A DNA stretch of 64,000 nucleotides, taken from IMG/VR virus record IMGVR_UViG_3300033143_001932; one strand, written 5' to 3'. This stretch comes from an uncultured virus (IMG/VR IMGVR_UViG_3300033143_001932). Taxonomy: Duplodnaviria; Heunggongvirae; Uroviricota; Caudoviricetes; Crassvirales. The notes beneath the pieces were generated by a model. It made no database searches. It was given only the letters and a program-made list of their open reading frames with translations, and was not told where the DNA came from. Below are positions 11,273 to 61,964 of the stretch, in pieces; positions within the stretch are counted from its first letter, which is position 1, and each line of letters opens with the position of its first letter. The position numbers and the translations under genes were made by a program.

Positions 11273-12349
11273 ATGGATAAAATACAAGTAAAAATAGTAG
11301 ATGACACTATAGAAGATAAAGGGGTTCAGCAAATTGAACAAGAGTTGGTAGATAAACACAACAAAGAAGTTGCTGAAGCTAATGAAGAATTAAAAGAAGA
11401 AAACCCTGAAACGGAGGGTATAAATGACGTTGACGTTCTTTCATATATTAAAAATAGATACGATAGAGATATCAAATCTATTGATGAGTTGTTTGACGCG
11501 AGACAACAAAATGAAGAGTTACCAGAAGATGTGGCTAGTTTTTTTCAATTTAAAAAAGAAACAGGTCGAGGAATGGAGGACTTTTTAAAAGCGCAACAAG
11601 ATGTAGAAGATATTTCAGATACTGATTTAATTTCTAATTATTGGAGCGACACTCAACCTCACTTAGACGGAGAAGATATAAAATTTGAATTTAATAATAA
11701 ATTTGGATTTAATCCGGATGAAGATGATGAGTCTTTTGTAAGGGAGAGAAAAATCGCTAGAAAAGCAGAACTTGCTAAAGCTAAGAAACACTTTAAAGAG
11801 CTTCAAGATAAATACAAAACACCTTTATTTGAGTCAAATACTGGTGAATTTACCTCGGAAGATCACAAAGAATTTCTAGCTTACAAGGAAGCTCAAAACC
11901 AAGCACGCACCCAGCAAGAAGAAAGAAGCCGGTATTTTACCGAAAAAACTAATGATGTTTTTAATGATGAGTTTGAAGGTTTCAACTTTACTATTAATGA
12001 CAACACTTTTTCATATAAACCGGGGGATGCTAATAAAATGCGTGAATCACAATCTGATTTACAAAATTTTATGAAGCAACATTTAACTGATGAAGGGTAT
12101 ATTGCAGACGCTAGAAAGTATCATAGAGCCTTAGCGGCAGCTATGAACCCAGATGCATTTGCAAGATATTTTTACGAGCAGGGTCAGTCGGATCAAGTTA
12201 CCGAATCAGCTAAAAGATCAAAAAACATTAACATGGGAGATGATTTAAGGCGATCACCACAAGGAAAAATTTCTAGTGGTTTCAAGGTAGCAAGTGTTCC
12301 TACTAGTCACGGTAATGGGCTACGAATAAGAAGTAAAAATAAAAACTAA
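11273..12349 (+). CDS. putative capsid scaffolding protein
   Basis: acidic helical 358 aa between portal and capsid genes. Confidence 0.7.
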   Translation: MDKIQVKIVDDTIEDKGVQQIEQELVDKHNKEVAEANEELKEENPETEGINDVDVLSYIKNRYDRDIKSIDELFDARQQNEELPEDVASFFQFKKETGRGMEDFLKAQQDVEDISDTDLISNYWSDTQPHLDGEDIKFEFNNKFGFNPDEDDESFVRERKIARKAELAKAKKHFKELQDKYKTPLFESNTGEFTSEDHKEFLAYKEAQNQARTQQEERSRYFTEKTNDVFNDEFEGFNFTINDNTFSYKPGDANKMRESQSDLQNFMKQHLTDEGYIADARKYHRALAAAMNPDAFARYFYEQGQSDQVTESAKRSKNINMGDDLRRSPQGKISSGFKVASVPTSHGNGLRIRSKNKN

Positions 12350-12367: not shown

Positions 12368-13789
12368 ATGGCATTAAATGTACCAGGGTTTCAATTAGAG
12401 CCCTCAGCGGAGAAAATCGCTACTGCCTCAAATTATATCACAGATTTTAATTTTATGAATCAGTATTTACCTGATACATACGAGAAAGAATTTGAGAGAT
12501 ATGGTAATAGAACGATTTCGTCCTTCCTTAGAATGGTTGGCGCTGAAATGCCTACTAACTCTGACCTTATTAAATGGGCGGAACAAGGTAGGTTACACAC
12601 CAAATATGAAGGTTGCACTTTTGGCGCGTTTGCGGCAGGGCAACAAACTTTTACTGTAGCAGGTGGTGCAAATTGCAACTTTAGAGTTGGACAAACAGTA
12701 ATGTTGTCTTCTGAGCAAGTAGCAAGTGAATCAGCAAAAGCACTAATCGTAACAGCAGCTTTAAATTCTTCAACTTTTACAGTGGCTTACTACGATGCTT
12801 TGGTAGCGAGTCCTTTTACAGGGGCTACATTAGGAGTTACTGCTTTCGTTTATGGTTCTGAGTTCCGACAAGGAACTGCCGGAATGGAAGATTCTTTAGA
12901 GGCTCAAGATGAGTTCTTTGACAACAAACCAATTATCATTAAGGACAAGTACATTGTATCTGGTTCTGACATGGCTCAAATTGGTTGGGTTGAAATTACA
13001 ACAGAGAACGGAGCAAACGGATATCTATGGTATTTGAAATCAGAACACGAAACTAGACTTCGTTATGATGATTATCTAGAAATGTCAATGATTGAAGGTA
13101 TCCCTGCTGAAGCGGGATCTGGAGCAGCAACTGCATTAAATGCAACGACAGCATATCCAGCTGGTTCGGTATTGGATGTAGGCGCGGGTACGCAAGGTCT
13201 TTTTGACGCTGTAGAACAACGTGGAAACGTATGGACTGGAGCTGGACCTGTTGCTTTAGCTGACTGGGATACAATTGTAGACCGTTTAGATAAGCAAGGA
13301 TCTATTCAAGAGAATGTAGTGTTTGTTAATAGAGATTTCGGTTTTGACATAGATGATATGTTAGCTGCTCAAAACTCTTATGGCGCAGGCGGTACTTCTT
13401 TTGGACTGTTTGATAATGATGAGGAAATGGCTCTTAATTTAGGTTTTACAGGGTTTAGAAGAGGTTACGACTTCTACAAAACTGACTGGAAATATCTAAA
13501 TGATATTACTTTAAGAGGTGGTCTTGTTGGTGGTAAAGTTAATGGAATTATGGTTCCAGCTGGCTCTACAACTGTATACGATCAAGTTTTAGGTAAAAAC
13601 GCTAAGAGACCATTCTTACACGTTAGATATAGAGCTTCAGAAACTGAAGACAGACGCTACAAAACTTGGTTGACTGGTTCTGCTGGTGGAGCAAGAACAA
13701 GCGATCTAGATGCGATGGAAGTTAACTTCCTATCTGAAAGAGCATTATGTACTTTAGGTGCAAATAACTTTGTGTTATTCAATGCTTAA
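12368..13789 (+). CDS. major capsid protein
   Basis: 473 aa; position after scaffold, IKWAEQGRLH motif, followed by a terminator. Confidence 0.85.
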   Translation: MALNVPGFQLEPSAEKIATASNYITDFNFMNQYLPDTYEKEFERYGNRTISSFLRMVGAEMPTNSDLIKWAEQGRLHTKYEGCTFGAFAAGQQTFTVAGGANCNFRVGQTVMLSSEQVASESAKALIVTAALNSSTFTVAYYDALVASPFTGATLGVTAFVYGSEFRQGTAGMEDSLEAQDEFFDNKPIIIKDKYIVSGSDMAQIGWVEITTENGANGYLWYLKSEHETRLRYDDYLEMSMIEGIPAEAGSGAATALNATTAYPAGSVLDVGAGTQGLFDAVEQRGNVWTGAGPVALADWDTIVDRLDKQGSIQENVVFVNRDFGFDIDDMLAAQNSYGAGGTSFGLFDNDEEMALNLGFTGFRRGYDFYKTDWKYLNDITLRGGLVGGKVNGIMVPAGSTTVYDQVLGKNAKRPFLHVRYRASETEDRRYKTWLTGSAGGARTSDLDAMEVNFLSERALCTLGANNFVLFNA

Positions 13790-13809: not shown

Positions 13810-13840
13810 AAAGCCCCATGTAATGTGGGGCTTTAATTTT
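13810..13840 (+). terminator. intrinsic terminator after capsid gene
   Basis: AAAGCCCCA-N7-TGGGGCTTT hairpin plus T-rich tail. Confidence 0.7.
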
Positions 13841-13861
13841 AATACAATAAAATATAATATA

Positions 13862-14611
13862 ATGAAACCAAAAAAATTTACACCTCAAGATAGGATTTAT
13901 CGTCTTAAGACAAAACAAACTCCTTTAGCGCTATTAATCGACACAGGAAGCGCAAAAAAGAAACCCCTCATTGTGTGGGATGAAGAAAAACAAGAAAATA
14001 GAGCTATTCGTTACGCAGCTAATCAACGTACATGTTATGTAGATGAGCAAGATGGAAATGCTGTTTTATCACCTATTATTTTTGAAGATGGTTTTTTAAT
14101 GGTCCCTAAAACCAATCCAGTCTTACAACAGTTCTTGCAAATGCACCCAAGAAACAATTCATTGTTTGAAGAGGTTAATGAAGAAGCTAATGCTAGTGAG
14201 GAATTACACTATATGGATATGCAAGATGAGGCTAGGCAAATAGCTAAAGACTTGACTATAGATCAAACCGAAATGATTGCTAGAATTTTAATGGGAAGTG
14301 AAGTAGAAAACTTAAAAAGCTCAGAATTAAGGAGAGATGTTAGGTTGTACGCAACTCAAAATCCAGGAGAGTTTTTAGAACTTTTAGATGATCCAGACAT
14401 TAAATTAGAAAACGTAGTAGCTAAAGCATTAGATGGTAGATATATCGCTTATAGAAACAACAAAAGAGATATTCACTGGAACTTAAAAGAGAATAAAAAA
14501 AGACTCATAACGGTACCTAAAGATGTAGAGCCTAACAGAGCTTTAGTGTCTTATTTATTATCTGAAGAAGGGGAAGAAGCTTTAACTATACTTGAAAAAT
14601 TAGTTGAATAA
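13862..14611 (+). CDS. hypothetical head-associated/assembly protein (start probably 13862)
   Basis: the ORF-track start lies inside the terminator; ATG 13862 has an A-rich leader. Confidence 0.65.
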   Translation: MKPKKFTPQDRIYRLKTKQTPLALLIDTGSAKKKPLIVWDEEKQENRAIRYAANQRTCYVDEQDGNAVLSPIIFEDGFLMVPKTNPVLQQFLQMHPRNNSLFEEVNEEANASEELHYMDMQDEARQIAKDLTIDQTEMIARILMGSEVENLKSSELRRDVRLYATQNPGEFLELLDDPDIKLENVVAKALDGRYIAYRNNKRDIHWNLKENKKRLITVPKDVEPNRALVSYLLSEEGEEALTILEKLVE

Positions 14612-26891: not shown

Positions 26892-29800
26892 ATGAACGAT
26901 AAGACATTAGAATCATTATATAAAAAATTAGGCTTAGAAGCTAATAATGTAAGTTTTGAAGATTTTAAAGGAGCTTTAGAGGAGTACCCAGAATACAGGG
27001 ATAATATATTTACAGCGCTTGTAGACGCAAAAGAATATACTCAAGAAGAAAGGGGCGCATTTGATGACTTGTTAAAAAAAAAAGAAGAAACTTCGGAGTT
27101 GGTTGGAAATCAAGCTCCTACCACTACTACATTGGCTACCGATCAGTCGGCTCAGGAAGCTGTTTCGGCTTCTTCCGATTTAGAAAGTAGTCAAGAACCT
27201 CAAAACCCTCAAGATGTAATTCAAGATGAGCAAGAGGTAGTTCAAGCTCAAGACGATACGGAATTACAAATTCAACAAGAGAACACTCAAGAAAATACAC
27301 CTCCACCTGTTATGGCTAACGCTACGGTAGACCAGCCTGAGATTACTAGCGCCACACCTATAATAGAAAACCAAACAGACATGACTCCTCCGGCAGAAAT
27401 GCCAGATGAATTTGCGCCAATTAATGCAGATGATTTAATGACTAGTAAAAGCGAAACTGGTCTGTATCCACAAACGCAAGTAGGCTTTGAAGCGGGTAAT
27501 GAAGAAGATGGAAATTTAGCCAACAAAAAAATGGATTATACTTTTTATCAGATTCCTGTTTCTGAAATGGAGCCCGACCAGGCTTCAAGAGTGGTTAATT
27601 ATATGCAAGAAAATGGGCTAACTGAATTAGAGGCTAGAATAAAAAATCCTGACATCTTTATAAACCAAAAGCAATTAGACGCTTTAGAACAAGAGAGAGA
27701 AGAAACAAATGAATTTTTAGAAGAAGGGGTTGGGAATATAATAAACACTATAGGTGATGACATATACAACGATGGATTAGAAGTAACAGAAGGAGAAAAT
27801 ATACCATCGGATTGGAGTACAGAATTATATACTGCACCTAATGGATCTACCTATGACAATAAATTAGAATTTATTAACTCCCCAGAGGGTAGGCAATTGA
27901 TTATGGAAGAAAAAACTTCTATAGCTGGAGGTGATATAATGAATTTTGACATTAATCGTCACATTTTAGAAGATGCTTTTGTTTTCTCAGGAGCCGACCC
28001 AGAACAGTTCGGTTATTATAAAAACGAAGACGGTGAATGGGGTGGACCCAGAAGGATGTTTGACTATAGAGGTCTTACTCAAGAATCCTCTGGTCCTGGA
28101 TTACAGAATGTATTTGATTGGGGAAGTTTTATTAACCCCGAAACCAATAAACCTTACGACTTAACCAAGGTAAAAAGCTATGATGATTTATCCGTCTTGT
28201 GGGATAAGATGTCTCTACACATGAACGATGATCAAGCTCAACGCATAATGCAAGAGGCTTATAATCAAAGTATAAATAGTGTTAATAATAAAATTTATGA
28301 CTACGGTCAAAATTATTTAGATAGAGCCGACCAAGGGGTTTCTAGGTCTTATAAGCAATTAAGAAACGCTCAATACGACTTAAACTTAATAGTAAATAAT
28401 CTTGCATACTATGAAGGTTTAGATGATAAAATGAAATTTGCTTATGACTCTAAATACACAGAAGCAACAGGATTATCGTATGGCGCCTATTTAGCACAAC
28501 AATGGGATTTCCAGCAGGCTAATGTAGAAACAGCTTTATTAGAATATGAACAACAACGTTCCTCTTGGTATAGTGATGAAACTGAACTGATAGATTTAAA
28601 AACAGGTAAGTTAATCAACTACGCAGACGCGGATCAAGAAACTTTAGACTATCATCAAAACATAGATGAAAGTGCGTTAAAATTAGTTAGAAGAAAAGGA
28701 AATAACCAAGGGTTTTTAGACGAACACTTAAGACGTTCATATTATAATCTAATGGCAATTTCATCTACAATGCCTGATAATTTTGCCGAAGCTTGGTGGG
28801 AAGGAAATTCTTACTTTGATGTAGCTCAAGGAGCTTTATTAGAAGGAATGGTAGGGTTATCAGCAGAAGCTAATAAACTGTTTTTTGATGATGAAGAAAT
28901 GTATAACAACATTAAAGAGATAGGAAATAGCTTTTCTAAATGGGGAGGGACTGACAAGCAGACCCTTATCAATTCATCTATGTATGATAAAAACGAAGCC
29001 CCTGAATTAAGAGATATGAGGATGAAAAAGCTTTGGTATTTAGATGGTAACTCACCTTGGATAAATACCTTTAATGAGGCTTTATATGATTTTCAATCAG
29101 CTAATAGAGCTGTAGTGTTAAATGAAGATTACATTCAAAAGGCTAAATTAAACCCTGAGAATAAATTTAATATGTACACCAGGGACTTGTTTATGTCCTT
29201 TGATTATCCTGACACACCAGGGACTCCTGACGATCCAATGAGTTTTGGTAAATACGGACCAAAAGAGGCTGCCAATCATTGGTCTCAAGTTTTACAACAA
29301 AATGGAGTGCAAATATCAGATGAAGACATGGCTTTTATGGAACAAACTTTTGCAGAAAAGGGAATTCATATGAGTGCTCAAATGACTAATTTCCTATATA
29401 AATTTGCTTTAACTAGAGGTATGTTTAAAGGAGTAGTGGGAACCACGGGCGCTACAGCAGCAGCTCCTCAAGGAGTATATAGATGGGACGCTGTTACGGC
29501 AGGGTTGGCGGGCTTAGGTCAAAGTAAAGCGTATCAACAATCAGTGTTTCTTCTTTCATCTATGTTGCAAGAAGGGTTAATAATGGAGGCTTATCAAGAA
29601 GGTTTTGAAGGTGGAGAAGGAATGGGTTTTTTAGAGGGTGCCGCTCTCGCTGGAGGCTCTGGCGCAATGAATATGGCGTGGAAGGCTATTAATAAAATTC
29701 CATTTATGGCTAAAATGCCAGCTACCATGGAGAAATTTCTCAATAGTCAATCTCAAGTCGTAGGGGGTATGGGAGGTATGTACACTTCTGAACTAGTTCA

Positions 29801-32800
29801 CGAATTAGGTCATAATAAAGAGTGGGGAGAAATAGTAAATAATGTGTTTGCTGGTCCTGACAATAGCCCCGGAGAAAAAGCTTTGTTGCTTTATTTTATG
29901 ACCGCTGGTATTCAGTATTCTAAAACTGGGAAAGAAGATATTACACAGTTTAGAGATGCTATAAAAAAAGACATTCAAAACATATATAATCGAAGCTATA
30001 AAAGAGTGCCAGCTTCAATAGCGGCTAATTACAAAAAATTAGGAATACGTCCTGACGCAACTGACCAGGAAGTAGTAGACGCTTATTTAAAGGCTTCCGA
30101 AAAATATGAAGATAAAGGCGGTTACAGAGATCCTAATAAAATGGAAGAGTTTATGGAGCTTCATGAGGCTTACACCACTGTTAAAAACCATAGAGGACAA
30201 AAATCCAACATAGAACAAGGGTTGGGGGAAATAGCTAAACAAGAACAACAAGATAAATCTAATCAAGAGCGATATGATCATTTAGATGATTTAGCAATTA
30301 AAACTACAGATCCTAGAACTGTAATGTTGGGGATTCCAACCTCAACTGAAAATTTAACAACCCTACCTTCAGAACAAAGGATATTAGAAGAAATGCAACC
30401 CACGTTTAATGCGGAGGAAGCTAACTTTTGGGCTAACAAGAGTGAAGTAGAGATTAAAGATTCTTATGGTTATATAAATAATTTAGTAAAACAAGGCGAA
30501 GTTACATCACTTCAAGGAGAACACATGAAGCAACAAATTTCTAATGTTCGTGAAATGATGAAAGGATTAGAGGTGATTGAAAACCCTGAAGCCAAGGCAG
30601 AGGCTTATGATTTATCTAATGAATTAATTCAACAAGAAAGATTATTAAACCTATATCAATCATCAAAAGTGTCTCCATCTCAAAAAATCAAGCAAGTTGA
30701 AGCTAGAATAAAAGAGATTAATAGTCGATTAACCGAAATAGGAAATAACATTGAAGCACCCGCAAGTCCTATAGAAAAAGCGCAAAATGAATTCAACAGG
30801 CTTTTAGAAGAAAAAAGAATGATTGAAAGCCCAAGCTTTAGAAGTAGTAACTCTAAAGAATATGTAGAACAAATGTTGAGAGATATTAACGGTAAGATTA
30901 GTGCTCAAGAGGAAAAAATGATTAACGAGTTTGGTGGTCAGTTTTCTGGGGGAGGTTCTAATAGAGTTTACGTAGAAGAAGTAGGTCCTTCTAAGTCTAA
31001 AACCGAAACGGAAAAGGGAGATAGAATAAAAGTAGGAGAGCAAGAGGTTATTGAGGAAGTTCCTGAAAACTTAGAAAGAGAAAATCCAGAGCTGTTAGAC
31101 GCAGAGCAAAAATCATCTCGAGACCAAAAGATAGAGGAAATGCAAGCAGAGGGAGAACAAGCTAGGATTACTCAACTCAAAGATTACATAAAAGAATTAA
31201 AAGAAAAAGGTGGAGATGAAAAGCGCGTACAGGAATTAGAAAAAGAATTAAACGATTTAGAGTCGAAACAAGTTGAACCATTAAAAACTGAAAAAGATGC
31301 CGATAGTGAGCCAGAACCAATGGAAGTACCTAGCGAAGAACAAGCCGAAAGTGTTCAAGAGACTGAAGAGATACAACCCGATGACGCGACTCCAGGACCT
31401 TCCGAAGTCAGCGCCCAACCGAAAGCCGACAAGACGACCCCACCGAAACGTTACAAGGACCTAAGAGATTCTGAAAACACCTCTGGAGACCCTCAATTAG
31501 AAAGAGTATATGGCGAGATTGAAAGTGAAATTGCTGAAAAAGTTGAAGCTAGAGACAGAAGAGATAGATACGTGAAAGACAGGTCAGCTATGACTACTAA
31601 ACAACAAGAAGCTACAGACCGAAGGGTAAATGCGGAAACTAAAGAGGCTGCTTTAGAATACTTAATGAGGTCTAAATGGTATGAAAACGCCACAGACCTA
31701 CAAAGAGATGCCGCCTTTAAAGAGGTGAGTTATCGATTTGGAGCGCCTAAGAAGCGATTAAACGCTCAAGACAGAGCTAACCAAGCTGTAGGGAATAAAG
31801 GACGTCAGAAGTTCGTAGATGAGCTCCAAATGCTTAAAGATCAATTTAAGATAGCTAATAAGGCTGGGAAAGATGTTAGGTATATAGTAGACAATATTCG
31901 TAAATATGTAGATCGAAACTTCACTTCTAAAAAAGGAGGGGTAAAAATCAACTGGACTACCGGTGACGCTAAGAAGCTTTATAAAAACCTAACAGATGAA
32001 AGAGCTGTTCTAGAAAAAGCTTACACAAATAAAAACGGAGACAGGATTAAAAAGTCTATTGCTCGTTTAGAAGAAATAACGAAAGAGATAGACCAGCTTA
32101 TAGAAAACAAAACTCGCCCTACTTATGTAGCGTGGTTAAAAGAAAATACGGTAGTAGATAATTTAACTACTGAGTCTGGTAGTGCTCAAATCTCGGTGAA
32201 TAAAATTAAAGAACTAAGACAGTATGTGGATAATTTAAAAAAACCATTTGAGGAAATGACCACTACCGAACTAGAGCAAACTATTAGTGATGTTCAACAA
32301 ATTATAAAAGAAGGTAAAGACGCTAAAACATTAGAGAGAAGTCGTAAGCAAAAATCTCAAATGGAAAATAAGGGTAAAATAGCAAAAGAGTTATATGTTG
32401 AAGGGGAAGATTTTAGCCAAGATGTAAACACCTACGAGGAGGCTGAGGCATATTTAGGATCTCAGAAAACTGACCTTAAACAACCCTTAAAAACTTTAGA
32501 ATTAGACCAAGAAAAAACTTTTAAAAACGAACAAGGAGAAGAGGTGTCGTTAGAAAAAGGAATTAGCGACAAGCGATCAAAATTAAGAAAATTAAGAGAA
32601 GAGGCAGAAAATATTGAAGAGGAAGTAATTGCTGATGAGGTGGTTGCTGATGAGGTGGTTGCGGAAGAACCTGTCTCAGATGAGGTAATAGAATTAGAAC
32701 CAATAGACCCAACAGAAGCTGACTTTTCATCTTATGATGTTAAAAACGCTGAAGAGAATCCAGCATTGGAGCCCTATATTAATTCAGAGGTGGAATCATC

Positions 32801-35800
32801 TAGAGATATGTTAGGGGGTCCAAAAGCTATTCAAGAAACGGCAGAATTAGGAAAAAAATTAGATGCAGACAATGCTAATGTGGTGTTTAAGAGAGATTTA
32901 GGGATTGTAGGTGGTCGAAGAATATTTGAATTTGAAGTAGAAGGTACAGGAGAAAAATTCTTAATGTACAAATCTAAAGGAGAGGGAACTGGTCCTGAAT
33001 CAAAAGGAAAATGGGTTCCTTTAAAATACTTCGCTAAAGACGGTTGGTTTGTTAAAGGAAGAGTAGATAACGAGGGTAACTTAAGTATGGAGCCACTTAC
33101 TAACGAAAACAATCCGAAGTTTAATAAATACGGAAGTGAGACCTTTAAAGAGTTAGCCAAAAAACTAGAAGCTGACGCAGAAGCTGTAAAAAATGAAAAC
33201 ACTACCGAAACTAAAGAAGAGGTTGCAACAGAAGAAGTGGCGGAAACTAAGAGAACTAAAGAAGATGTACAAAAAGAAATCGAAGCTACTGAAAATGAAA
33301 TTGAACAATTAGAAGAGGTTTTAAATGAACTACCTACTCAAGCAGAATTAGACGCTGCTAGAGACAGGTTGATTAATGAAGCTAGAGATTCAGACGCTAT
33401 AGATAAAATTGAAAATGCATACGAAAAAGCTTCTAAACGTTTAAGACAGGAAGAGGCAAGTTCAAGTGTAACTTTTGATCCTAGGGACGGTTTTGTATTG
33501 GTTACAACGAAAGACGGAAAGACGTATCTCGTTAAAAGTAAATCAGACTTAAATAAAATTGACCCAGAGGAATTTGAGTCAGGAACTGGATATGTCAGTA
33601 AAGATGTTCAAATTAGTAGACAACAACAACAAGCTATTCAAGGTGAAGAATTAAAGGATAAACTAAAAAGCGAAGCGGAAAAAGCTGTTAAAAAGATAGC
33701 AAAACCTTTCCATGGAGCCTCTATTAAAACTATCAAAACTCTATTAGAAAGAGTGGGTCTAGGTAAGCCAGAACTAAAAGAAGCTACTGTTGATATTTAT
33801 GAAGACATTGTAGCGGCTAGAAGAAATATTCAAAAACTTGCTGATGAGTTAACCACATCGCTAAATGAAGTGAAAAAAGAAAACAAAATCACTGATAAGT
33901 TTTTATTGAAAGCTAAATCAAAAGATGGTAAATCAAGCACAAGAAATATTATAAAACACGAAACTCCAGAATCTTCTTATGAGATTACCAATGACACAGC
34001 CGTAGATTTATATATGCTTAAAATAGCGGAAGGTAAATACAGGTTAGAGCAAACAGGTGTAGATGTAGCTGAATTGGACTCCTATATGGACGCCAATCCA
34101 GAGCTAAAAAAATACGCAGAAGACATGTTAGACTGGTATGAGTCTACAAGACCTTATTTTAAAGATGTGTTTGAAGATGTAACAGGTAGAACTTTTGAGG
34201 ACTTCAATAGAAACCCTGACGGAGAAGAGTTGCGTTATATGCCTATTTGGGCAAAAGGCACAAGTGAGAGACCAGGGTCAGATCTTATAACAAGTGATAA
34301 TTTTACTTTAGGTATAAAAGGCGGTAAAGATCAAAACTATTCTAGCAGTGTAATGACTGATCGTTTTAAACAAAGAAATGATAGATGGGTAATGAGTAAA
34401 GACGGTAGATGGGAGCGCCCTGAAGGTCCATATCAAATGACAGGAGCTAACACAAAGGCATTAGATTACATTAAAGAGATGACTCATACTAATGAGATGT
34501 GGGATGTCAACCAAAAAATTAAAGGGCTAATTAACCCACAAACAGAAGGGAAATTAATTGACATGATGGGAGAAGAGAACTATAGATCTCTTAAGTCTCA
34601 ATTAGACGAAATAACGGGCGGAGAAAATAAATACCAAACTCAAGTTGAGTCTGTTATAAATAAAGTTAATAAAGCTGGTGTGGTATATAGACTAGCATTT
34701 AACACCTTGAATATAGCCAAACAAGCAACTACCGCCACTCATTGGCTTGGAGCTGGAATAAAAGACGGGGTATACCCTTGGGATATGGTGGCGCAGTCCG
34801 GATTAAGCGTTACTGACCTGGTTGGTAAAAACGGGAAAGAAAAGGTAAATTTCATTTGGGATATAATAACAGATCCTCAAATAAAAAATAGATGGAAAAA
34901 AACCGCTATAGACCCTGCCTTTGAAGAGTTTATTAATAAAGCGTCTACCACTAAAGAATGGAGCGTTACCCAAAAGAGAAGAATGTTAGGTAAACTTTTA
35001 ACTGACATAGGAATGAAGCCTACGCAAGTTGGGGATATGCTTGGAGTTTTAGGCGGAGGAATTCCTTACGCGTTAGCTTATAGGACGAAGTACATAAAAG
35101 ACGGATACTCTAAAGCTCAAGCTTCAGAAATGGCTCTAGGTAAAATGACTAAGCTAATGAACGAGTTACAGCAATCTCAAGAAGGTTACGCTACTACACC
35201 ACTACAAAGAAGTTTATTAGGTAGAACGTTTGTGACTCAATATAAGAGTTCTCAAATTCAAGCTGTAAACAAACAAATGCAAGTAATTCAAGAAATAAGA
35301 GATTCTAAAAACGCTACCACTAATGAGAAGGCTCAAATGGCATACGATTTTATTTATTGGAGCATGTTTAACGCTGGCTTTAGTGCTTTCGCAACAGGAT
35401 ACGCAGCGGATGTATTAGGTCTTAGTGATTCTGACGATAAAGGTGAAGAACGAACACAACACAACTTTATAGAAGGTATGATGAGTTCACAACTTCAAGG
35501 TATGGGTATGTTAGGGTTAGTAGCTGAATTTGGAATGAATGAATTTATTGGACAAGACTGGAAAAACAACAACCCAATGATTGACTTTATAAGTGATATT
35601 ACTGGAGCTGTCTATGAGGCAAGCACAACAGGTATTGGGGATATGACTGAAAAGGTGGAGAAAGGAGATTTACTAAAAAGTGTAATTGACTTAGAAATAA
35701 AAAATAAAATAATTGAAGCCGCTGAAAATGATGGATGGAGTACGGCTATTGATATGTATGACGATTATATGTTTTCTACACATGGAGATAAATTAGAAGG

Positions 35801-36128
35801 AGAAGGAGAAGTAAGTAAATTGTGGGCAGAAAAATTTGAAAAAGAACGAAACGCTTTAATTAAATTTAGTGAAAAAGAAAGCTTTATAAAAGCTATAACC
35901 CCCAATGGTTTAGCTAAGATTTTTGATGCAATTTCAGGGGATGCAGAATTGTTAGACCTTGTTATTAAGCGAGTTCAAGGATATGATGAAATAAAAGAAA
36001 AAGAGAAAAGAAGAGTAGATAAATTATTTGAACTAACTAAAGGTAAAAAATACATTGAAGACGAACCAAAGAAACAGACTGAGAAAGCGAACGTGTTGAA
36101 GTATGAAGACGAAAACTCGGCTTATTGA
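26892..36128 (+). CDS. giant internal virion/ejection protein (3078 aa) with degenerate J-domain
   Basis: last gene of the structural block; helical, with Gly-rich hydrophobic segments and a J-domain-like stretch at about aa 1046-1098. Confidence 0.7.
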   Translation: MNDKTLESLYKKLGLEANNVSFEDFKGALEEYPEYRDNIFTALVDAKEYTQEERGAFDDLLKKKEETSELVGNQAPTTTTLATDQSAQEAVSASSDLESSQEPQNPQDVIQDEQEVVQAQDDTELQIQQENTQENTPPPVMANATVDQPEITSATPIIENQTDMTPPAEMPDEFAPINADDLMTSKSETGLYPQTQVGFEAGNEEDGNLANKKMDYTFYQIPVSEMEPDQASRVVNYMQENGLTELEARIKNPDIFINQKQLDALEQEREETNEFLEEGVGNIINTIGDDIYNDGLEVTEGENIPSDWSTELYTAPNGSTYDNKLEFINSPEGRQLIMEEKTSIAGGDIMNFDINRHILEDAFVFSGADPEQFGYYKNEDGEWGGPRRMFDYRGLTQESSGPGLQNVFDWGSFINPETNKPYDLTKVKSYDDLSVLWDKMSLHMNDDQAQRIMQEAYNQSINSVNNKIYDYGQNYLDRADQGVSRSYKQLRNAQYDLNLIVNNLAYYEGLDDKMKFAYDSKYTEATGLSYGAYLAQQWDFQQANVETALLEYEQQRSSWYSDETELIDLKTGKLINYADADQETLDYHQNIDESALKLVRRKGNNQGFLDEHLRRSYYNLMAISSTMPDNFAEAWWEGNSYFDVAQGALLEGMVGLSAEANKLFFDDEEMYNNIKEIGNSFSKWGGTDKQTLINSSMYDKNEAPELRDMRMKKLWYLDGNSPWINTFNEALYDFQSANRAVVLNEDYIQKAKLNPENKFNMYTRDLFMSFDYPDTPGTPDDPMSFGKYGPKEAANHWSQVLQQNGVQISDEDMAFMEQTFAEKGIHMSAQMTNFLYKFALTRGMFKGVVGTTGATAAAPQGVYRWDAVTAGLAGLGQSKAYQQSVFLLSSMLQEGLIMEAYQEGFEGGEGMGFLEGAALAGGSGAMNMAWKAINKIPFMAKMPATMEKFLNSQSQVVGGMGGMYTSELVHELGHNKEWGEIVNNVFAGPDNSPGEKALLLYFMTAGIQYSKTGKEDITQFRDAIKKDIQNIYNRSYKRVPASIAANYKKLGIRPDATDQEVVDAYLKASEKYEDKGGYRDPNKMEEFMELHEAYTTVKNHRGQKSNIEQGLGEIAKQEQQDKSNQERYDHLDDLAIKTTDPRTVMLGIPTSTENLTTLPSEQRILEEMQPTFNAEEANFWANKSEVEIKDSYGYINNLVKQGEVTSLQGEHMKQQISNVREMMKGLEVIENPEAKAEAYDLSNELIQQERLLNLYQSSKVSPSQKIKQVEARIKEINSRLTEIGNNIEAPASPIEKAQNEFNRLLEEKRMIESPSFRSSNSKEYVEQMLRDINGKISAQEEKMINEFGGQFSGGGSNRVYVEEVGPSKSKTETEKGDRIKVGEQEVIEEVPENLERENPELLDAEQKSSRDQKIEEMQAEGEQARITQLKDYIKELKEKGGDEKRVQELEKELNDLESKQVEPLKTEKDADSEPEPMEVPSEEQAESVQETEEIQPDDATPGPSEVSAQPKADKTTPPKRYKDLRDSENTSGDPQLERVYGEIESEIAEKVEARDRRDRYVKDRSAMTTKQQEATDRRVNAETKEAALEYLMRSKWYENATDLQRDAAFKEVSYRFGAPKKRLNAQDRANQAVGNKGRQKFVDELQMLKDQFKIANKAGKDVRYIVDNIRKYVDRNFTSKKGGVKINWTTGDAKKLYKNLTDERAVLEKAYTNKNGDRIKKSIARLEEITKEIDQLIENKTRPTYVAWLKENTVVDNLTTESGSAQISVNKIKELRQYVDNLKKPFEEMTTTELEQTISDVQQIIKEGKDAKTLERSRKQKSQMENKGKIAKELYVEGEDFSQDVNTYEEAEAYLGSQKTDLKQPLKTLELDQEKTFKNEQGEEVSLEKGISDKRSKLRKLREEAENIEEEVIADEVVADEVVAEEPVSDEVIELEPIDPTEADFSSYDVKNAEENPALEPYINSEVESSRDMLGGPKAIQETAELGKKLDADNANVVFKRDLGIVGGRRIFEFEVEGTGEKFLMYKSKGEGTGPESKGKWVPLKYFAKDGWFVKGRVDNEGNLSMEPLTNENNPKFNKYGSETFKELAKKLEADAEAVKNENTTETKEEVATEEVAETKRTKEDVQKEIEATENEIEQLEEVLNELPTQAELDAARDRLINEARDSDAIDKIENAYEKASKRLRQEEASSSVTFDPRDGFVLVTTKDGKTYLVKSKSDLNKIDPEEFESGTGYVSKDVQISRQQQQAIQGEELKDKLKSEAEKAVKKIAKPFHGASIKTIKTLLERVGLGKPELKEATVDIYEDIVAARRNIQKLADELTTSLNEVKKENKITDKFLLKAKSKDGKSSTRNIIKHETPESSYEITNDTAVDLYMLKIAEGKYRLEQTGVDVAELDSYMDANPELKKYAEDMLDWYESTRPYFKDVFEDVTGRTFEDFNRNPDGEELRYMPIWAKGTSERPGSDLITSDNFTLGIKGGKDQNYSSSVMTDRFKQRNDRWVMSKDGRWERPEGPYQMTGANTKALDYIKEMTHTNEMWDVNQKIKGLINPQTEGKLIDMMGEENYRSLKSQLDEITGGENKYQTQVESVINKVNKAGVVYRLAFNTLNIAKQATTATHWLGAGIKDGVYPWDMVAQSGLSVTDLVGKNGKEKVNFIWDIITDPQIKNRWKKTAIDPAFEEFINKASTTKEWSVTQKRRMLGKLLTDIGMKPTQVGDMLGVLGGGIPYALAYRTKYIKDGYSKAQASEMALGKMTKLMNELQQSQEGYATTPLQRSLLGRTFVTQYKSSQIQAVNKQMQVIQEIRDSKNATTNEKAQMAYDFIYWSMFNAGFSAFATGYAADVLGLSDSDDKGEERTQHNFIEGMMSSQLQGMGMLGLVAEFGMNEFIGQDWKNNNPMIDFISDITGAVYEASTTGIGDMTEKVEKGDLLKSVIDLEIKNKIIEAAENDGWSTAIDMYDDYMFSTHGDKLEGEGEVSKLWAEKFEKERNALIKFSEKESFIKAITPNGLAKIFDAISGDAELLDLVIKRVQGYDEIKEKEKRRVDKLFELTKGKKYIEDEPKKQTEKANVLKYEDENSAY
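31297..31464 (+). CDS. nested +1-frame 55-aa basic protein
   Basis: MPIVSQNQWKYLAKNKPKVFKRLKRYNPMTRLQDLPKSAPNRKPTRRPHRNVTRT; A-rich leader; resembles MPFxSxxQxxYLxxNxP small phage proteins. Confidence 0.6.
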   Translation: MPIVSQNQWKYLAKNKPKVFKRLKRYNPMTRLQDLPKSAPNRKPTRRPHRNVTRT

Positions 36129-48824: not shown

Positions 48825-49076
48825 TTAAGTTATTTCATTTACGTTATTTATAATTCGTGATTGGTCTTTGTCGTATTGTTTATAGTCTATAATAAACCCA
48901 ACTAAGACTATTATGTTCATTCCACAAGAGGCTAATATCTCATGAAGATCCGCATACACATTTAAAGATAAATGGATATGCCCTACCATCCAAAAGGGGA
49001 CGGCAAGGTTTTGACTTATCCATATTAAAGTAAACTTTGTTATGCTTTTTATTTTTAATTTATTTATAGTATACAT
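48825..49076 (-). CDS. small membrane protein
   Basis: 83 aa with two hydrophobic segments. Confidence 0.55.
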   Translation of the reverse strand: MYTINKLKIKSITKFTLIWISQNLAVPFWMVGHIHLSLNVYADLHEILASCGMNIIVLVGFIIDYKQYDKDQSRIINNVNEIT

Positions 49077-50136
49077 TTGTCATTTCATCTATTTGTTCAT
49101 CTTTATAGGTACTACAAGTCATGCAATAAAGCCTAGCTTCATACTCATCATACCACAACTCATCAGAACAGTTATTACAATCAACTCCAGCTTCCATAAC
49201 TTCACCTTCCATTCTTTCTTCTAAAGGGACATCTTCAAACTTTGGATTGTAATATTCCCAATTACCATCATCAGCCCATCTATCTTCTAATAAATAGCTG
49301 TCTACATACGATTGATGATGAACCCCACTATCCTTAACGGTGTCGTTAAAGTATGTCCACGCCTCTACTATCTCTCCGTTACTTAGTCGTATTGGAGTCT
49401 TTTGTCTTTTATACCAATTGGGGTGTCCTTCTAACATATCTATGTCTATCATTGTGTCTTTGTCAACTAGAAACACATCTACATCTACATTATGTCCTAC
49501 TCCCTTTTTACTTAGTAGGTATGGTAGTCCCTCTACTATAAGGGGATATTTGTATACAGTTTCACCTGAGTCTACATATTCTGATTGTGTTAGGTAGCTA
49601 TAATAATTACTATGTTTATATTTAAGCGTTCCGTATACAGCCATAAAACTAAACCCTAACACATTCTTCTTGCTATACATAATTCCATCGCTGTCGCTGT
49701 GCCACAGTTTAGGATTATATATTTCAAATGTTTTTTCTTTAGTATTAGCAACTACATATCTACAATTTGTCATTTCCAACACTTTCCTCCAACGACTTGG
49801 TGCTAAATCTGCTAGTATTTCAGCCAGCTCCTCAGTGTCGGTTGTTAGTAAATTCCCCAATCCTGGTACTGTTCCATTTTGGAATAAAAGATTGTCTTTA
49901 TCAATACTAAACGGATGACAGTTGTTGAGGTTTATTTTACCTACAGTTGCATACCTAAAGTGAGCTATAAACGGTCTAGGCGTTAACAGTTTTTCATATT
50001 TTTCACTTGGTATTTTTTCTAGTTCAAAAGTATCTAACCATATAATTCCTAGTCCGTCAGGGTTTTTTAGTGCTGAAGCAACAAGGGTTGCATGGTTAAT
50101 GATGTTTTTGTTTTCTTTAATTATTATTACACACAT
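49060..50136 (-). CDS. class-II glutamine amidotransferase fused to gamma-glutamylcyclotransferase (AIG2-like)
   Basis: N-terminal Cys (MCVII), NPDGLG, HFRYATVG, NCHPF, QNGT and TDTE; then AVYGTLK..IDMLEGHPNWYKR; C-terminal CxxC..CxxC. Confidence 0.85.
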   Translation of the reverse strand: MCVIIIKENKNIINHATLVASALKNPDGLGIIWLDTFELEKIPSEKYEKLLTPRPFIAHFRYATVGKINLNNCHPFSIDKDNLLFQNGTVPGLGNLLTTDTEELAEILADLAPSRWRKVLEMTNCRYVVANTKEKTFEIYNPKLWHSDSDGIMYSKKNVLGFSFMAVYGTLKYKHSNYYSYLTQSEYVDSGETVYKYPLIVEGLPYLLSKKGVGHNVDVDVFLVDKDTMIDIDMLEGHPNWYKRQKTPIRLSNGEIVEAWTYFNDTVKDSGVHHQSYVDSYLLEDRWADDGNWEYYNPKFEDVPLEERMEGEVMEAGVDCNNCSDELWYDEYEARLYCMTCSTYKDEQIDEMTNVYYK

Positions 50137-57863: not shown

Positions 57864-59435
57864 ATGATAGTAAAAGATATTAGCTTTGGCGATGAAGCTA
57901 GAGGTGCCTTAATCGCAGGCATAAACAAAATCGCTAATGCTGTAAAAAGCACACTAGGTGCGCGAGGTCGCACAGTCTTAATTGAATCAACTGAGCACAT
58001 AGGCGGTATAACGGTAACAAAGGATGGAGTAACTGTTGCTAACAGCATCAACCTTATGGACCCGACTGAAAATTTAGCTGTAGTAATGATGCGTCAAGCT
58101 GCATCCAAGACAGCTAGTGAAGCTGGTGACGGAACGACTACAGCTATAGTGTTAGCTCAAGCATTGATCCATGAAGCTCAAACACGTATAAAGCCGGAGA
58201 TGAACTTGACTCAGATTATGAGAGCTATTCAATCTAGTTCGGATTACATACTAAAGCTATTAACTGACATGTCGGACCAGGTGAATGAGGATAGGCTGCT
58301 AGATGTCGCCTCTATTTCAGCTAATAATGATTCGGAGATTGGGGAAATAATATACAACGCTTACAATAATGTAGGTAAGCATGGAGTGGTGACGGTAGAG
58401 AATGCGCAAGGGTCTGAGACTTATTGCACAGTTAGTGAAGGTATGCGTATAGCCCGTGGGTATTTGTCTAGGTATTTTATAACTAACAAGAAAACCAGTG
58501 AATGCGTTTTGGAGAAACCATACATCTTAGTTCTTGATCAAGAGGTTGAGCAGTTCGGGAATATTGAACAGGTCCTGGCTGATGTGTACAAAGAAGGGCG
58601 TTCCATACTAATCATTTCTAACTTAAGTCCAAACATTATAAACACACTAAACCTCAACCGAGCTAGAAATGGTTTAAAGGTTTGTGCTATTCAACCACCG
58701 CAGTTTGGTTGGAAGTCAAACGAGCTGATGGAGGATATAGCGATAGCAACTGGCGCAACATATTTTAGTGAGTCGACTGGCGACAATCTACAATCAGTCT
58801 CCATAGCCGATCTTGGTTTCTGTGATAAAGTAATCGTAGACCAAACACATACCATACTAGTGCGAAACGAGGACAATGACCAAGTGGTTAATGACCGAGT
58901 GTCCGTCCTGTGGGAAGAGCATGATAACCATAAAAATAAAGACACTCAAGAATTTATTCGCGAGCGCATAGCTGTACTGTCAGGACGAATCGGAGTAATC
59001 CACGTAGGAGCCAATTCAGACATAGAGCAAAAAGAAAAGCGCGATAGGGTGGATGATGCTGTCTGCGCGACTCGCGCAGCACTGGAGGACGGAATTCTCT
59101 CCGGAGGTGGTGTCGCACTTAGGGACATCTCCACAAAGGTTGGCTCTCAAAAAGGATCATGTGAAGAAGATCAGGTCGCTTACGCAATTTTAGAAAAAGC
59201 ACTGCGTGCTCCTTATAATCAAATATTAGCCAATGCGGGTCTGGACTATCCAGCACCCTCTGGACAAAGAAAGGGCTACGGCATAAATGTCAAGACTATG
59301 AAAAGTGGGAACATGCGTAAGCTAGGCATCATTGACCCAACTAAAGTAACAAAGAGTGCTATAGTAAATGCGATATCTGTAGCTACAACTATCCTATCAA
59401 CTAATGCTATAATAACAAACATAAGACAACAATGA
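57864..59435 (+). CDS. groEL: phage chaperonin GroEL
   Basis: VKSTLGARGR, VTKDGVTVA, AGDGTTTA, RVDDAVCATRAALEDGILSGGG and IIDPTKVT motifs. Confidence 0.95.
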   Translation: MIVKDISFGDEARGALIAGINKIANAVKSTLGARGRTVLIESTEHIGGITVTKDGVTVANSINLMDPTENLAVVMMRQAASKTASEAGDGTTTAIVLAQALIHEAQTRIKPEMNLTQIMRAIQSSSDYILKLLTDMSDQVNEDRLLDVASISANNDSEIGEIIYNAYNNVGKHGVVTVENAQGSETYCTVSEGMRIARGYLSRYFITNKKTSECVLEKPYILVLDQEVEQFGNIEQVLADVYKEGRSILIISNLSPNIINTLNLNRARNGLKVCAIQPPQFGWKSNELMEDIAIATGATYFSESTGDNLQSVSIADLGFCDKVIVDQTHTILVRNEDNDQVVNDRVSVLWEEHDNHKNKDTQEFIRERIAVLSGRIGVIHVGANSDIEQKEKRDRVDDAVCATRAALEDGILSGGGVALRDISTKVGSQKGSCEEDQVAYAILEKALRAPYNQILANAGLDYPAPSGQRKGYGINVKTMKSGNMRKLGIIDPTKVTKSAIVNAISVATTILSTNAIITNIRQQ

Positions 59436-59689
59436 AAGCAATAGGTAAATATTTGCTGATTGAATCTCAAGCAGAAGAACACACTACCAAAAACGGATTG
59501 CTGATAACTGGAGATGATGTAGCTCAAGTTAGATATGCTCGCGGAAAAGTTATTAGTGTGGGATCGGATGTAAAACATATATCACAAGATGATATTATAT
59601 ATTACGACAAACGAAACACGCATATAGCAAGAATTGAAGGTGCTGCTTATCAAGTTGTTCCTGAAGCTTGTGTGGTAATTGTTTTGTAA
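59432..59689 (+). CDS. groES: co-chaperonin GroES
   Basis: 85 aa; TTKNGLLI mobile loop and GKVISVG; overlaps the groEL stop. Confidence 0.85.
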   Translation: MKAIGKYLLIESQAEEHTTKNGLLITGDDVAQVRYARGKVISVGSDVKHISQDDIIYYDKRNTHIARIEGAAYQVVPEACVVIVL

Positions 59690-59723: not shown

Positions 59724-60020
59724 ATGGCAAAAACTTCTAAAGCAAGCATGCCTTGCAACAAACCAAGGAGATCTAATCGTCCAGGAAAAAAAATGATGGT
59801 TAAAGGCTGTGAAGGTGGAAAGGAAAAACTTCTACACTTTGGAGCTAAAGGTTATGGTCATAATTATTCTCCAGCAGCTCGTAGGTCATTCAGAGCTAGA
59901 CACAAATGTGCTACAGCTACAAGTAAATTAACGGCTAGATATTGGGCGTGTAAAAAACTGTGGGCTGGAAAAGGGGGCTCCACTAAAAGCTCTCCAAAAA
60001 ATAAACAAGGAAAATATTAA
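59724..60020 (+). CDS. conserved small basic viral protein
   Basis: LLHFGAKGY..RRSFRARHKC..TARYWAC motif. Confidence 0.7.
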   Translation: MAKTSKASMPCNKPRRSNRPGKKMMVKGCEGGKEKLLHFGAKGYGHNYSPAARRSFRARHKCATATSKLTARYWACKKLWAGKGGSTKSSPKNKQGKY

Positions 60021-60024
60021 CACA

Positions 60025-60210
60025 ATGAATTATAGAACATCACTTCCATTACATGAGACAGAGTTTCTTGATGAGTGGCCCAAAAAGAAAAGAAAAAATA
60101 AATCAAAAGGGAACAATAGGTCTATTAAGGATAAAAGAAGAGCTCATAAGAAGCAGCTAAAAAAGTGTGGTAAAAAAACCTTGGGAAGCTGTAAGGTTGT
60201 AAAAAGATAA
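60025..60210 (+). CDS. basic protein with RTSLPLHxTEF leader (copy 1)
   Basis: MNYRTSLPLHETEF followed by a K/R-rich tail. Confidence 0.7.
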   Translation: MNYRTSLPLHETEFLDEWPKKKRKNKSKGNNRSIKDKRRAHKKQLKKCGKKTLGSCKVVKR

Positions 60211-60254
60211 GATATAGCTAAGAAAAGAAAAGTAACTAGAAAAAAAAGTAAGAC

Positions 60255-60455
60255 ATGAGTAAGATGACTAACAGAAAACGCAAATGCCCTAAAGGAGAAA
60301 GGTTTAATAAGGGTAAAAACAAATGTGTAGAAACACTTATTAGTAAAGCTGGCATAGACAGCCCAGGGGCTGTAGCTGGTTTAATTGGTGTTTTAGGTGG
60401 AGGATTAGGAGCTTACGCTAAAGTAAAGTCGGATATTAAAAAGCAAGGACGATGA
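60255..60455 (+). CDS. small basic protein with Gly-rich hydrophobic segment
   Basis: KCPKGERFNKGKNKCV plus AVAGLIGVLGGGLGAYA. Confidence 0.6.
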   Translation: MSKMTNRKRKCPKGERFNKGKNKCVETLISKAGIDSPGAVAGLIGVLGGGLGAYAKVKSDIKKQGR

Positions 60456-60619
60456 ATTATAGAACATCGCTCCCGTTACACCCAACCGAATTTCCTGAAG
60501 TGTCTAAAAAAGATAGACGAAAGGTTAAAAGATATTCCCGCAAAGCGGTAAAAGGTAAGTCCACAAAGAAAAGTAGACGAGAGACTAGTAAGTTATATTA
60601 TAAAATAGTAGGATTGTAA
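60452..60619 (+). CDS. basic protein with RTSLPLHxTEF leader (copy 2; not in ORF track)
   Basis: MNYRTSLPLHPTEFPEVSKKDRRKVKRYSRKAVKGKSTKKSRRETSKLYYKIVGL; ATGA overlap with the upstream stop. Confidence 0.75.
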   Translation: MNYRTSLPLHPTEFPEVSKKDRRKVKRYSRKAVKGKSTKKSRRETSKLYYKIVGL

Positions 60620-60649
60620 AGAATCTTAAGAAACAAACAAGAAATAATT

Positions 60650-61066
60650 ATGTCATATAGAACCTCATTACCATTGCACCCAACTGAATTTGGAAAACCT
60701 TTAGTAACTAAGAAAAGGAAAAAACACGCCAGATCTATTCGCCCTACATCTAGAAAAAATCCAGATGGAAGTAGAAGTTCACATATAATGGAGTCTGGTG
60801 AGTCTGACGGCAAGTACAAATATCAAGTAAACCCAACCCTATTAAAAGAAGGCACAGCAGGGTGGAGAGAAGCACAGAAACGAGGAGAGGTATATGGATT
60901 TAAGAGTAAGAAAAGAGCTGAAAAGTTTGCTTATGGCAGTTGGAAAAAGGGAAAAGATAAAAGAACCGGCATGAAGCACTATCGTTGTGAGAAAAAAGGA
61001 TATACCTGGAACAACAATACCAATACTTGTGAGAAAAAGAAAACAGGTAAAAAAAGAAACAAATAA
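60650..61066 (+). CDS. basic protein with RTSLPLHxTEF leader (copy 3)
   Basis: MSYRTSLPLHPTEF; NPDGSRSSH..AQKRGEVYGF..AEKFAYGSWK. Confidence 0.7.
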   Translation: MSYRTSLPLHPTEFGKPLVTKKRKKHARSIRPTSRKNPDGSRSSHIMESGESDGKYKYQVNPTLLKEGTAGWREAQKRGEVYGFKSKKRAEKFAYGSWKKGKDKRTGMKHYRCEKKGYTWNNNTNTCEKKKTGKKRNK

Positions 61067-61095: not shown

Positions 61096-61332
61096 ATGAA
61101 ACAAGGATATAACTCAAGACTAGATGAATCTTTAGGTGCAAAGCACGGAAAGAAGTCACAAAGCTATGCGTCAAGAAGACATGAAAGCGAAGCTATGGAA
61201 AAAAAATATCATGGTCACAAGTATGGATCAGATGCAGATATGTCTTATAGAGACAATTTTAAAGACAAGTGTGCGCACGTTGTAAAAGGTGGACACGTTG
61301 CTAAAGCACTAGAGCATCAATTTAGAAAATAA
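61096..61332 (+). CDS. small basic His-rich protein
   Basis: MKQGYNSRLDESLG..RRHESEAMEK; TATCTTTA at 61073-61080 upstream. Confidence 0.65.
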   Translation: MKQGYNSRLDESLGAKHGKKSQSYASRRHESEAMEKKYHGHKYGSDADMSYRDNFKDKCAHVVKGGHVAKALEHQFRK

Positions 61333-61335
61333 GAC

Positions 61336-61596
61336 ATGGCTAGTAAGTTAGAAAAAATGAGGGAAAAGCCCGGAGGTTCTAACGCTGGTAAATACAAAAA
61401 CGTTTCTAAAGGAGACTTTTGTGGACCATCAGGAGGAGCACCTCAAGGTAGTTACCCGGTAAACACAAGGGAGAGAGCTGAATCAGCTCTTAAGCTTGCT
61501 CACAATGCACCTAATCCAGAAGGGATTAAGTCTTGTGTGTATAGGAAATACCCAGGTCTTAAGAAAAAAAGCTTAATGCATAATCGTAAGAAGTAA
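61336..61596 (+). CDS. small basic protein
   Basis: FCGPSGG..SYPVNTRERAESALKLAHNAPNPEGIKSCV. Confidence 0.65.
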   Translation: MASKLEKMREKPGGSNAGKYKNVSKGDFCGPSGGAPQGSYPVNTRERAESALKLAHNAPNPEGIKSCVYRKYPGLKKKSLMHNRKK

Positions 61597-61964
61597 TGTC
61601 TAAACTAGGTGGAGGTAAGCACGAGCGTCAATTAAAGAGAGAGGAGCGTAGGCGTAGGCGTCAGTGGCAAAAAAGATCTTCAGCAAAAGGTGTAGAAAAA
61701 CCTAATTGCACTACTCTTTCTTGTCGAAACCCAGGGACTAAGAGTAAAGCTCAAAGACAAAGGGAGAGAGAGGCTCGTAAAGATGAGCGTCAAGACAACA
61801 GAGCTAAAAACAAGCAATTAAGAAAAGATAAAAGAGAGCTAAAAAAAGACATTAGAAAAGAAAAGAGAGCGGTGAGAAAGAGTTCTAAAACGAAACCCAT
61901 CCCATCTTTAATTGCTGGTCCTCCAAAATCTAAAGAAAAATCTAAAAACCCTAGGTTTATGTAG
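61596..61964 (+). CDS. very basic low-complexity protein
   Basis: 122 aa, R/K-rich. Confidence 0.6.
   Translation: MSKLGGGKHERQLKREERRRRRQWQKRSSAKGVEKPNCTTLSCRNPGTKSKAQRQREREARKDERQDNRAKNKQLRKDKRELKKDIRKEKRAVRKSSKTKPIPSLIAGPPKSKEKSKNPRFM

Follow-up and report, generated by a model that had tools for sequence, protein, structure and literature searches.

A dialect-rich terminal peptide on small basic proteins of uncultured marine phages and its possible role in loading the phage head

A near-invariant peptide of 13 residues stands at one end of many small, very basic and otherwise unrelated proteins encoded by a lineage of uncultured marine phages. This tag exists in several dialects, can be carried at either end of the protein and has an interchangeable counterpart in a second tag, and the lineage-wide system that they make up is real and apparently undescribed: no paper reporting the motif strings, or the concept in this lineage, was found in a literature search outside which lay most subscription papers and all supplements. 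We give a probability of roughly 0.5 to the reading that the peptide is an uncleaved docking tag for the interior of the procapsid, which would load predicted-disordered, basic and putatively DNA-binding proteins.

The window, by which we mean the whole 64,000-nt stretch of DNA that was analysed, covers nearly all of a complete phage genome of 64,586 nt with a 71-nt terminal repeat. This circular genome encodes a GroEL, is kin to those of Elemovirus and Callevirus, and contains genes for terminase (6579), portal protein (8800), tail proteins with the crAss muzzle C-terminal domain, GroEL and GroES. With Elemovirus phages of Flavobacterium the terminase shares 44% identity; for the capsid protein the identity is 49% to Elemovirus, 40% to Callevirus phage phi40:1 and 27% to Baltivirus; relatedness, and with it the placement with respect to Pervagoviridae, Pachyviridae and Elemovirus (family names as in the available part of PMC8776804), rests on these single-protein identities of terminase and capsid. 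Phage phi40:1 has been grouped with probable Flavobacteriaceae phages, and 36 members of the group have GroEL (PMC5332604, available part). An island of small Lys/Arg-rich ORFs lies 3′ of groEL/groES, which stand at its head (57864-59689, + strand; Pfam/PHROG), and its strand runs on via tail and lysis genes and ORFs 2912 and 3136 into the head genes. These encode the portal protein (8800-11226, +; PHROG), an inferred scaffold (11273-12349, +; acidic, recognized by composition and by position between the portal and capsid genes) and the inferred major capsid protein (12368-13789, +; PHROG 13704, “virion structural protein”). The scaffold has a conserved C-terminal G-L-R-I-[RK]-S-K, which may be a coat-binding peptide of its own. 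Elsewhere, besides the GroES adjoining GroEL, a second GroES-like protein of 198 aa is encoded just 5′ of the terminase gene (5744-6340, +); a 3078-aa protein (26892-36128, +) weakly resembles a DnaJ domain over residues 1047-1100 (E 2.9e-5, under the curated cut-off), and the early region encodes a fusion of glutamine-amidotransferase-like and gamma-glutamyl cyclotransferase domains (49060-50136, −).

Three ORFs of the island, all on the + strand, begin with the tag in its H dialect, M-x-Y-R-T-S-x-P-L-H-x-T-E: 60025-60210 (61 aa, net charge +17), in which the tag takes up codons 1-13, 60452-60619 (55 aa, +14) and 60650-61066 (138 aa, +27). When all 64,586 nt were scanned in six frames without gaps (BLOSUM62), their starts scored 78, 73 and 70 and the next window 26. 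The preliminary description of this DNA, which had recognized the common start peptide, gave the positions of the three ORFs and quoted their DNA correctly, and its view that conservation acts on the peptide rather than on the DNA holds as well. Each pair of ORFs is alike at 29-33 of 42 nt, with 6 synonymous versus 1-2 non-synonymous codon differences; pS and pN are 0.84 and 0.13 over codons 2-13 of the three, 0.65 and 0.14 in 12 H-dialect coding sequences and 0.43 and 0.08 in 29 coding sequences of the A dialect. The bodies that follow are indeed unrelated, as no BLASTP similarity joins them (best E 7.9). The peptide had been given a length of 14 residues; position 14 is F in 33 and D in 31 of 73 family members, so that the core is set at 13. 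The claim that the ORF at 2912 (2912-3133, +, 73 aa) has a related start stands by way of another dialect, R-D-L-x-x-P-L-A-x-T, 11 of its first 14 residues being those of the database protein P0001, and fails by direct comparison, which left it outside the 25 best windows of the scan; its profile score is circular because it served as a profile seed. ORF 60452 had been called unannotated, which is not so everywhere: its cluster at 90% identity has five members, one of them from a 64,586-nt contig.

The tagged genes are interleaved with untagged ones. The ATG of ORF 60452 overlaps the stop of ORF 60255-60455 (+), an untagged basic ORF with a Gly-rich hydrophobic stretch that lies between two tagged genes. 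On the 5′ side, the untagged basic neighbour at 59724-60020 (+, 98 aa; weak DUF5754, PHROG 7595, partial match to PHROG 220 minor head protein) anchors the island in relatives, and on the 3′ side the ORF list and Pfam/PHROG searches gave three more untagged small basic ORFs (61096, 61336 and 61596, together 61096-61964, +). Parts of the tagged starts were recovered, nearly unchanged, in contigs from four of four other sequencing runs, which excludes an assembly artefact as the source of the repeat. Two joints by which run contigs bypass the tagged block, with sides of 26-30 nt, were disregarded. The body of ORF 60650 varies between assemblies, with a 22-nt deletion and frameshift at 60830-60851 in another assembly of the same phage (L002:7107) and a 27-nt insertion near 60843 in run X1. 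An Atlas search with this ORF gave an unnamed best match (0.82), which is no more than a lead.

The tag belongs to a family far larger than could be seen from the window's sequence. An exact 12-residue pattern found only the same phage among viral contigs, and the impression of a motif private to one phage was overturned by relaxed patterns and profiles. Variants were first seen in the islands of 80 relatives fetched via gene 59724 (the best 80 of 596), and pattern scans added more. The family motif is R-x(1-5)-P-L-[ASH]-x-[TS]; in most cases a short spacer, acidic or Gly-Pro, and a run of Lys come next. Four dialects recur: the window's Y-R-T-S-x-P-L-H-x-T-E, Y-R-[IV]-S-x-P-L-A-x-T-Q-F, R-D-L-x-x-P-L-A-x-T-F and R-D-[FT]-P-L-A-x-T. 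H goes with E and A with Q. Among 156 loci collected without regard to the motif, it is present in 33 of 1032 small basic ORFs, compared with 1.0 (maximum 4) over 200 shuffles, and in 2 of 876 ORFs that are longer and non-basic; the expression tested was derived partly from these same loci, and the independent tests are therefore the database searches. A profile search for the motif, as the preliminary description had suggested, was run with the two Y-R dialects over 1.84 billion representatives and gave 74 matches at E up to 0.001. In 73 of them the motif is at residue 1 of a protein of 37-259 aa, and 72 of these 73 contain at least 19% K+R. Their bodies fall into 53 BLAST clusters, a number inflated by low-complexity masking, in keeping with the variable basic cargo that had been proposed. 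The top-scoring match, P0241, is a protein of 494 aa with six repeats inside it and was excluded as unrelated. Against proteins longer than 70 aa, a mixed profile found 356 matches; 118 of the 120 that were listed are N-terminal and form 34 clusters, and the other two resemble mis-called starts. No Pfam domain was found on these 120 or on 60 further matches scanned (0/60), and a search for the motif in solved structures returned just two weak chance rows.

The bodies behind the tag are alike in character. In a charge-hydropathy plot, 184 of 185 tagged proteins fall on the disordered side, with a median length of 112 residues and a median net charge of +21. A Gly-rich hydrophobic stretch, seen as a hydrophobic 17-mer in 8 of the 185 (P0005, P0018 and P0286 among the proteins with such a stretch) and also present in the untagged ORF 60255-60455, could insert into membrane. 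Tag and body are exchangeable parts. Several dialects coexist within one locus (L088, L096, L122), the same body is found behind different dialects, and up to four tagged genes share a locus. In L185, the slot of ORF 60452 has upstream and tag DNA nearly as in the window joined to the body of ORF 60025, which shows that bodies swap at the tag boundary; in L029, two tagged genes are preceded by identical upstream DNA. A scan 5′ of tagged genes for sigma-70-like sites, which differ from Bacteroidota promoters, found 11 versus 15.1 in shuffles and so no shared promoter of this type. The ORF next to 2912, at 3136-3447 (+, 103 aa, basic), starts with a second tag, Y-N-S-x-x-F-[RK]-[ND]-x-x-[IV]-D. 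This tag, also present at L045:2222, L047:3835, L061:4396 and L075:5382, has 57 matches over 70 aa, 52 of them N-terminal; none of the 57 proteins also bears the first tag, and ten share their body with a first-tag protein. A segment F-R-x-A-F-S-x-A-[RK]-K-S-G-K-K-T-F was also observed behind three different tags or dialects (P0275, P0279, P0346, L031:386).

The word leader, used at the outset for the peptide, describes most copies and not all of them. Both profiles are biased towards N-terminal copies because the start Met was included in them. A position-blind DNA pattern for one dialect matched 59 metagenome and 12 viral stretches, giving 40 contexts, of which 30 are N-terminal, six C-terminal (0-2 residues before the stop) and four other; the C-terminal copies are confined to one or two related body families. 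Position-blind searches with further dialects found 15 of 15 copies N-terminal in one case and 7 of 13 in another, the remainder being in unrelated frames, and motif copies 7-16 residues from the start, plus a few more C-terminal ones, also occur. The suggestion of a processing signal is likewise weakened, since the main dialects have no common last residue and no protease family was recognized in 71 ORFs of the genome (43 compared with Pfam and PHROGs, 28 more with Pfam), a search that an unrecognized or a host protease could escape. The conserved gene directly 3′ of the capsid gene (13823-14611, +) was considered as a hidden protease or partner. Its structure model (pLDDT 77), with the first 13 codons left off, had no Foldseek match and matched unnamed proteins in the atlas; VIA-align gave a RecA C-terminal domain as best hit (Z 7.7, rmsd 1.9, 56 aligned) and a SAP domain at Z 5.5, both under the tool's noise level. 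In phi40:1 and phi18:3, the gene in this position carries no MS annotation as structural.

The tag is confined to one phage lineage and is optional within it. A marker gene of this lineage is present in 92 of 95 loci with a tagged gene, and GroES and GroEL flank 39 and 29 of these 95, respectively. In prokaryote genomes, the RDL-dialect pattern had 28 matches, 14 of them in frame and none near the start of a small basic protein. Fifty whole records were searched for the tag, 37 of which are the longer contigs among 79 island loci and were not picked for the motif. It occurs in 7 of these 37 and, among the 12 with a completeness of 90% or more, in 1; it was not found in MW202828, elemoF, phi40:1 or phi18:3 (0/4) by the same search that found it in five of five tagged records. 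On a quick capsid tree of 50 rows, with five of the 50 records omitted because their capsid gene is missing or cut, the tag needs 11 changes, at least seven of them forced, against a mean of 16.8 in shuffles. It is thus clustered yet repeatedly gained or lost, on a tree in which most tagged rows were picked for the tag and incomplete contigs may be wrongly scored as untagged. Tagged G050 and the complete, untagged G010 have identical capsid proteins, and no column in alignments of capsid, scaffold, portal and ORF 13823 proteins separates tagged from untagged genomes. Eight capsid and nine portal residues are peculiar to the H dialect; the 4-5 genomes that supply them are related and not independent, and these residues were discarded.

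The link to the virion is indirect and runs through related cultured phages. In phi40:1 (Callevirus, Pervagoviridae), gp069 and gp080 are of the same size and charge class as the tagged proteins (28% and 32% K+R) and are annotated as structural from MS/MS; unlike the tagged proteins, both are without the tag, so basic proteins can be in particles without it. Homologues of gp080 share islands with tagged genes: they occur in 11 loci, two of which have tagged genes, and in L185 the homologue lies directly 3′ of two of these. Among the entries listed for the phi18:3 region there is no small MS-annotated protein, and the available part of PMC13288928, which reports phi38:1 proteomes, says nothing on these proteins. 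An AlphaFold capsid model from 19 sequences had a pLDDT of 40 and was unusable for reading a docking pocket. By eye, the tag has a faint likeness to the capsid N-arm (L-x-P-S), to a conserved Y-[KR]-x-P-[LV]-E-S at residues ~180-190 of the inferred scaffold (11273-12349) and to T-P-[LI] in ORF 13823. The motif profile picked none of these three proteins, and the idea that the tag mimics a segment of a head protein was dropped.

The conservation of the peptide, its place at either free end of disordered polycations and the lack of a cut site shared by the dialects together suggest a docking motif. We propose that the 13-residue peptide is a short linear motif through which small, very basic, predicted-disordered proteins would attach by their free end, and without being cleaved, to a conserved site in the interior of the assembling head, on the capsid protein or the scaffold. 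The acidic or Gly-Pro spacer and the Lys/Arg-rich body would then face the lumen and neutralize the packaged DNA, and the basic bodies may perhaps enter the host along with it. Since dialects coexist and tagged and untagged phages can have identical capsids, the site is likely conserved in the lineage and optionally used. The late-gene position of the tagged genes and the annotation of the phi40:1 proteins point to the head, and uncleaved loading of the procapsid is therefore favoured. The lack of covariation with head proteins is a counterweight, in that it fits an optional cargo and gives no positive link to the head. Further points against this reading are the untagged virion proteins of phi40:1, the small share of unselected records that bear the tag, the restriction of C-terminal copies to one or two related body families and the pairing of H with E and A with Q, for which it does not account. 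The inferred capsid protein is our preferred candidate partner; portal and scaffold are further candidates, as are GroEL and GroES, by adjacency alone.

A partner outside the head, encountered during infection, has in our judgment a small but appreciable chance of being the right answer. The tagged proteins could dock onto a host protein (of the nucleoid or ribosome, or a protease adaptor) or onto the phage GroEL/GroES and act in the cytoplasm late in infection, and the start of the island directly 3′ of groEL/groES, the chaperonin genes near other tagged loci and the absence of covariation with head proteins are all compatible with this. So is the patchy distribution on the capsid tree, patchy presence being common among host-interaction genes. 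However, the tag is near invariant across phages whose hosts probably differ, the RDL dialect has no host-side copy among the prokaryote matches, GroEL-bearing cultured relatives are without the tag, and related basic proteins are annotated as virion proteins. It is unlikely that the peptide is a T4-style propeptide, which would target the prohead core and then be removed by an unrecognized protease cutting, for instance, behind the Glu of P-L-H-x-T-E. The mostly N-terminal position agrees with such a role, as does the invariant E13 (56/56) that ends the H dialect and after which conservation falls, given that T4 gp21 cleaves after Glu (PMC9026906, available part). But E13 occurs only in that dialect: the A dialect has Q in its place and the RDL and RDF dialects have F directly after T, even though these dialects share bodies and genomes with the H dialect. 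Furthermore, C-terminal copies finish at the stop or a few residues before it, and neither the 71 ORFs nor the fold of the post-capsid protein offered a protease.

Equally improbable, in our estimate, is that the tag serves self-association or anchors its bearers on the outside of the capsid or tail, so that basic tails are displayed outward or gathered into a condensate. The clustering of several tagged genes in one locus, the disordered bodies and the occasional hydrophobic 17-mer would suit such a function, whereas an Arg/Lys-rich disordered tail seems better matched to DNA than to an outer surface. Lastly, the shared DNA could be a translation-start module of little protein function, spread by recombination among newly born genes. 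Body exchange exactly at the tag boundary in L185 relative to the window, identical DNA 5′ of two genes in L029, bodies that tolerate indels and a codon bias in codons 3-6 (TCA in 39 of 41 coding sequences, for instance) speak for it. Across the same 41 coding sequences, all four codons are nevertheless used at P8, A10 and T12 while R4, S6, P8, L9 and T12 stay constant; the pattern that retrieved these sequences fixes the five residues, which are likewise invariant in the 73 profile matches. Together with a pN far under pS and the existence of C-terminal copies, this makes a mere translation module very improbable.

The tag can be compared with several known systems. The T4 capsid targeting sequence (CTS) needs just 10 residues for loading, and the T4 internal proteins that carry it are basic and non-essential, co-purify with the scaffold gp22 and are cut by gp21 (PMC9026906, PMC7697877, in the parts available). 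The analogy with these proteins, drawn in the preliminary description, remains apt. Here as in T4, a short conserved peptide is carried by otherwise unrelated small proteins of one phage; as with IPI, IPII and IPIII, the peptide is terminal and shared, its bearers are divergent, basic and non-essential, and the cargo set varies among relatives (PMC9026906, PMC7697877, same parts). Unlike the CTS, the tag belongs to an unrelated phage lineage with podovirus-type head genes; it is also found C-terminally, where a strictly N-terminal propeptide would not be; its dialects have no common Glu cut site and the genome no prohead protease that we could find; and several dialects and a second tag coexist in one genome. 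Encapsulins load their cargo by a peptide of ~10 residues, C- or N-terminal, that attaches to a luminal pocket of the HK97-type shell (PMC7355545, available part). Our tag resembles this peptide in occurring at either terminus, here known from sequence alone, and differs in its carrier, a DNA phage with terminase, portal and tail genes rather than a genome-free bacterial shell, and in its cargo, which is disordered and basic rather than an enzyme; the shell binding here is putative. On balance the tag seems to fit better with encapsulin cargo peptides than with the cleaved CTS of T4. A more distant parallel is the crassvirus phiCrAss001, in which cargo proteins gp45-gp50 are stored in head and tail and short segments bind portal and tail; these cargoes are large and conserved, and the available part of PMC10172136 describes no common terminal tag on them. 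This phage is a distantly related podovirus, and the window shares its crAss muzzle C-terminal domain. In phiX174, a short terminal segment holds the small basic DNA-binding protein J on the inside of the capsid. Protein J comes from one essential gene of an ssDNA phage, whereas the tag is portable and found on many bodies.

How non-essential proteins are directed into the head is understood in a handful of phages, chiefly T4, and a near-invariant 13-residue motif on hundreds of proteins in uncultured marine phages makes the question testable. The capsid protein of this lineage forms at least 8000 clusters at 90% identity, and the tag labels many small lysine-rich “hypothetical” genes of marine viromes. 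Were it to function at either end and without a protease, it would offer a simple means of loading phage-like particles. A bolder reading, which we hold only tentatively, is that head loading in these phages is modular and protease-free: at least two short docking tags, interchangeable and each directed to a conserved procapsid site, would recruit newly born polycationic disordered proteins from a rapidly changing pool, with the tag DNA serving as crossover for body swaps. Should this be true, a DNA phage would possess an encapsidation signal that acts from either end and needs no protease, and new genes would have an entry route into the virion.
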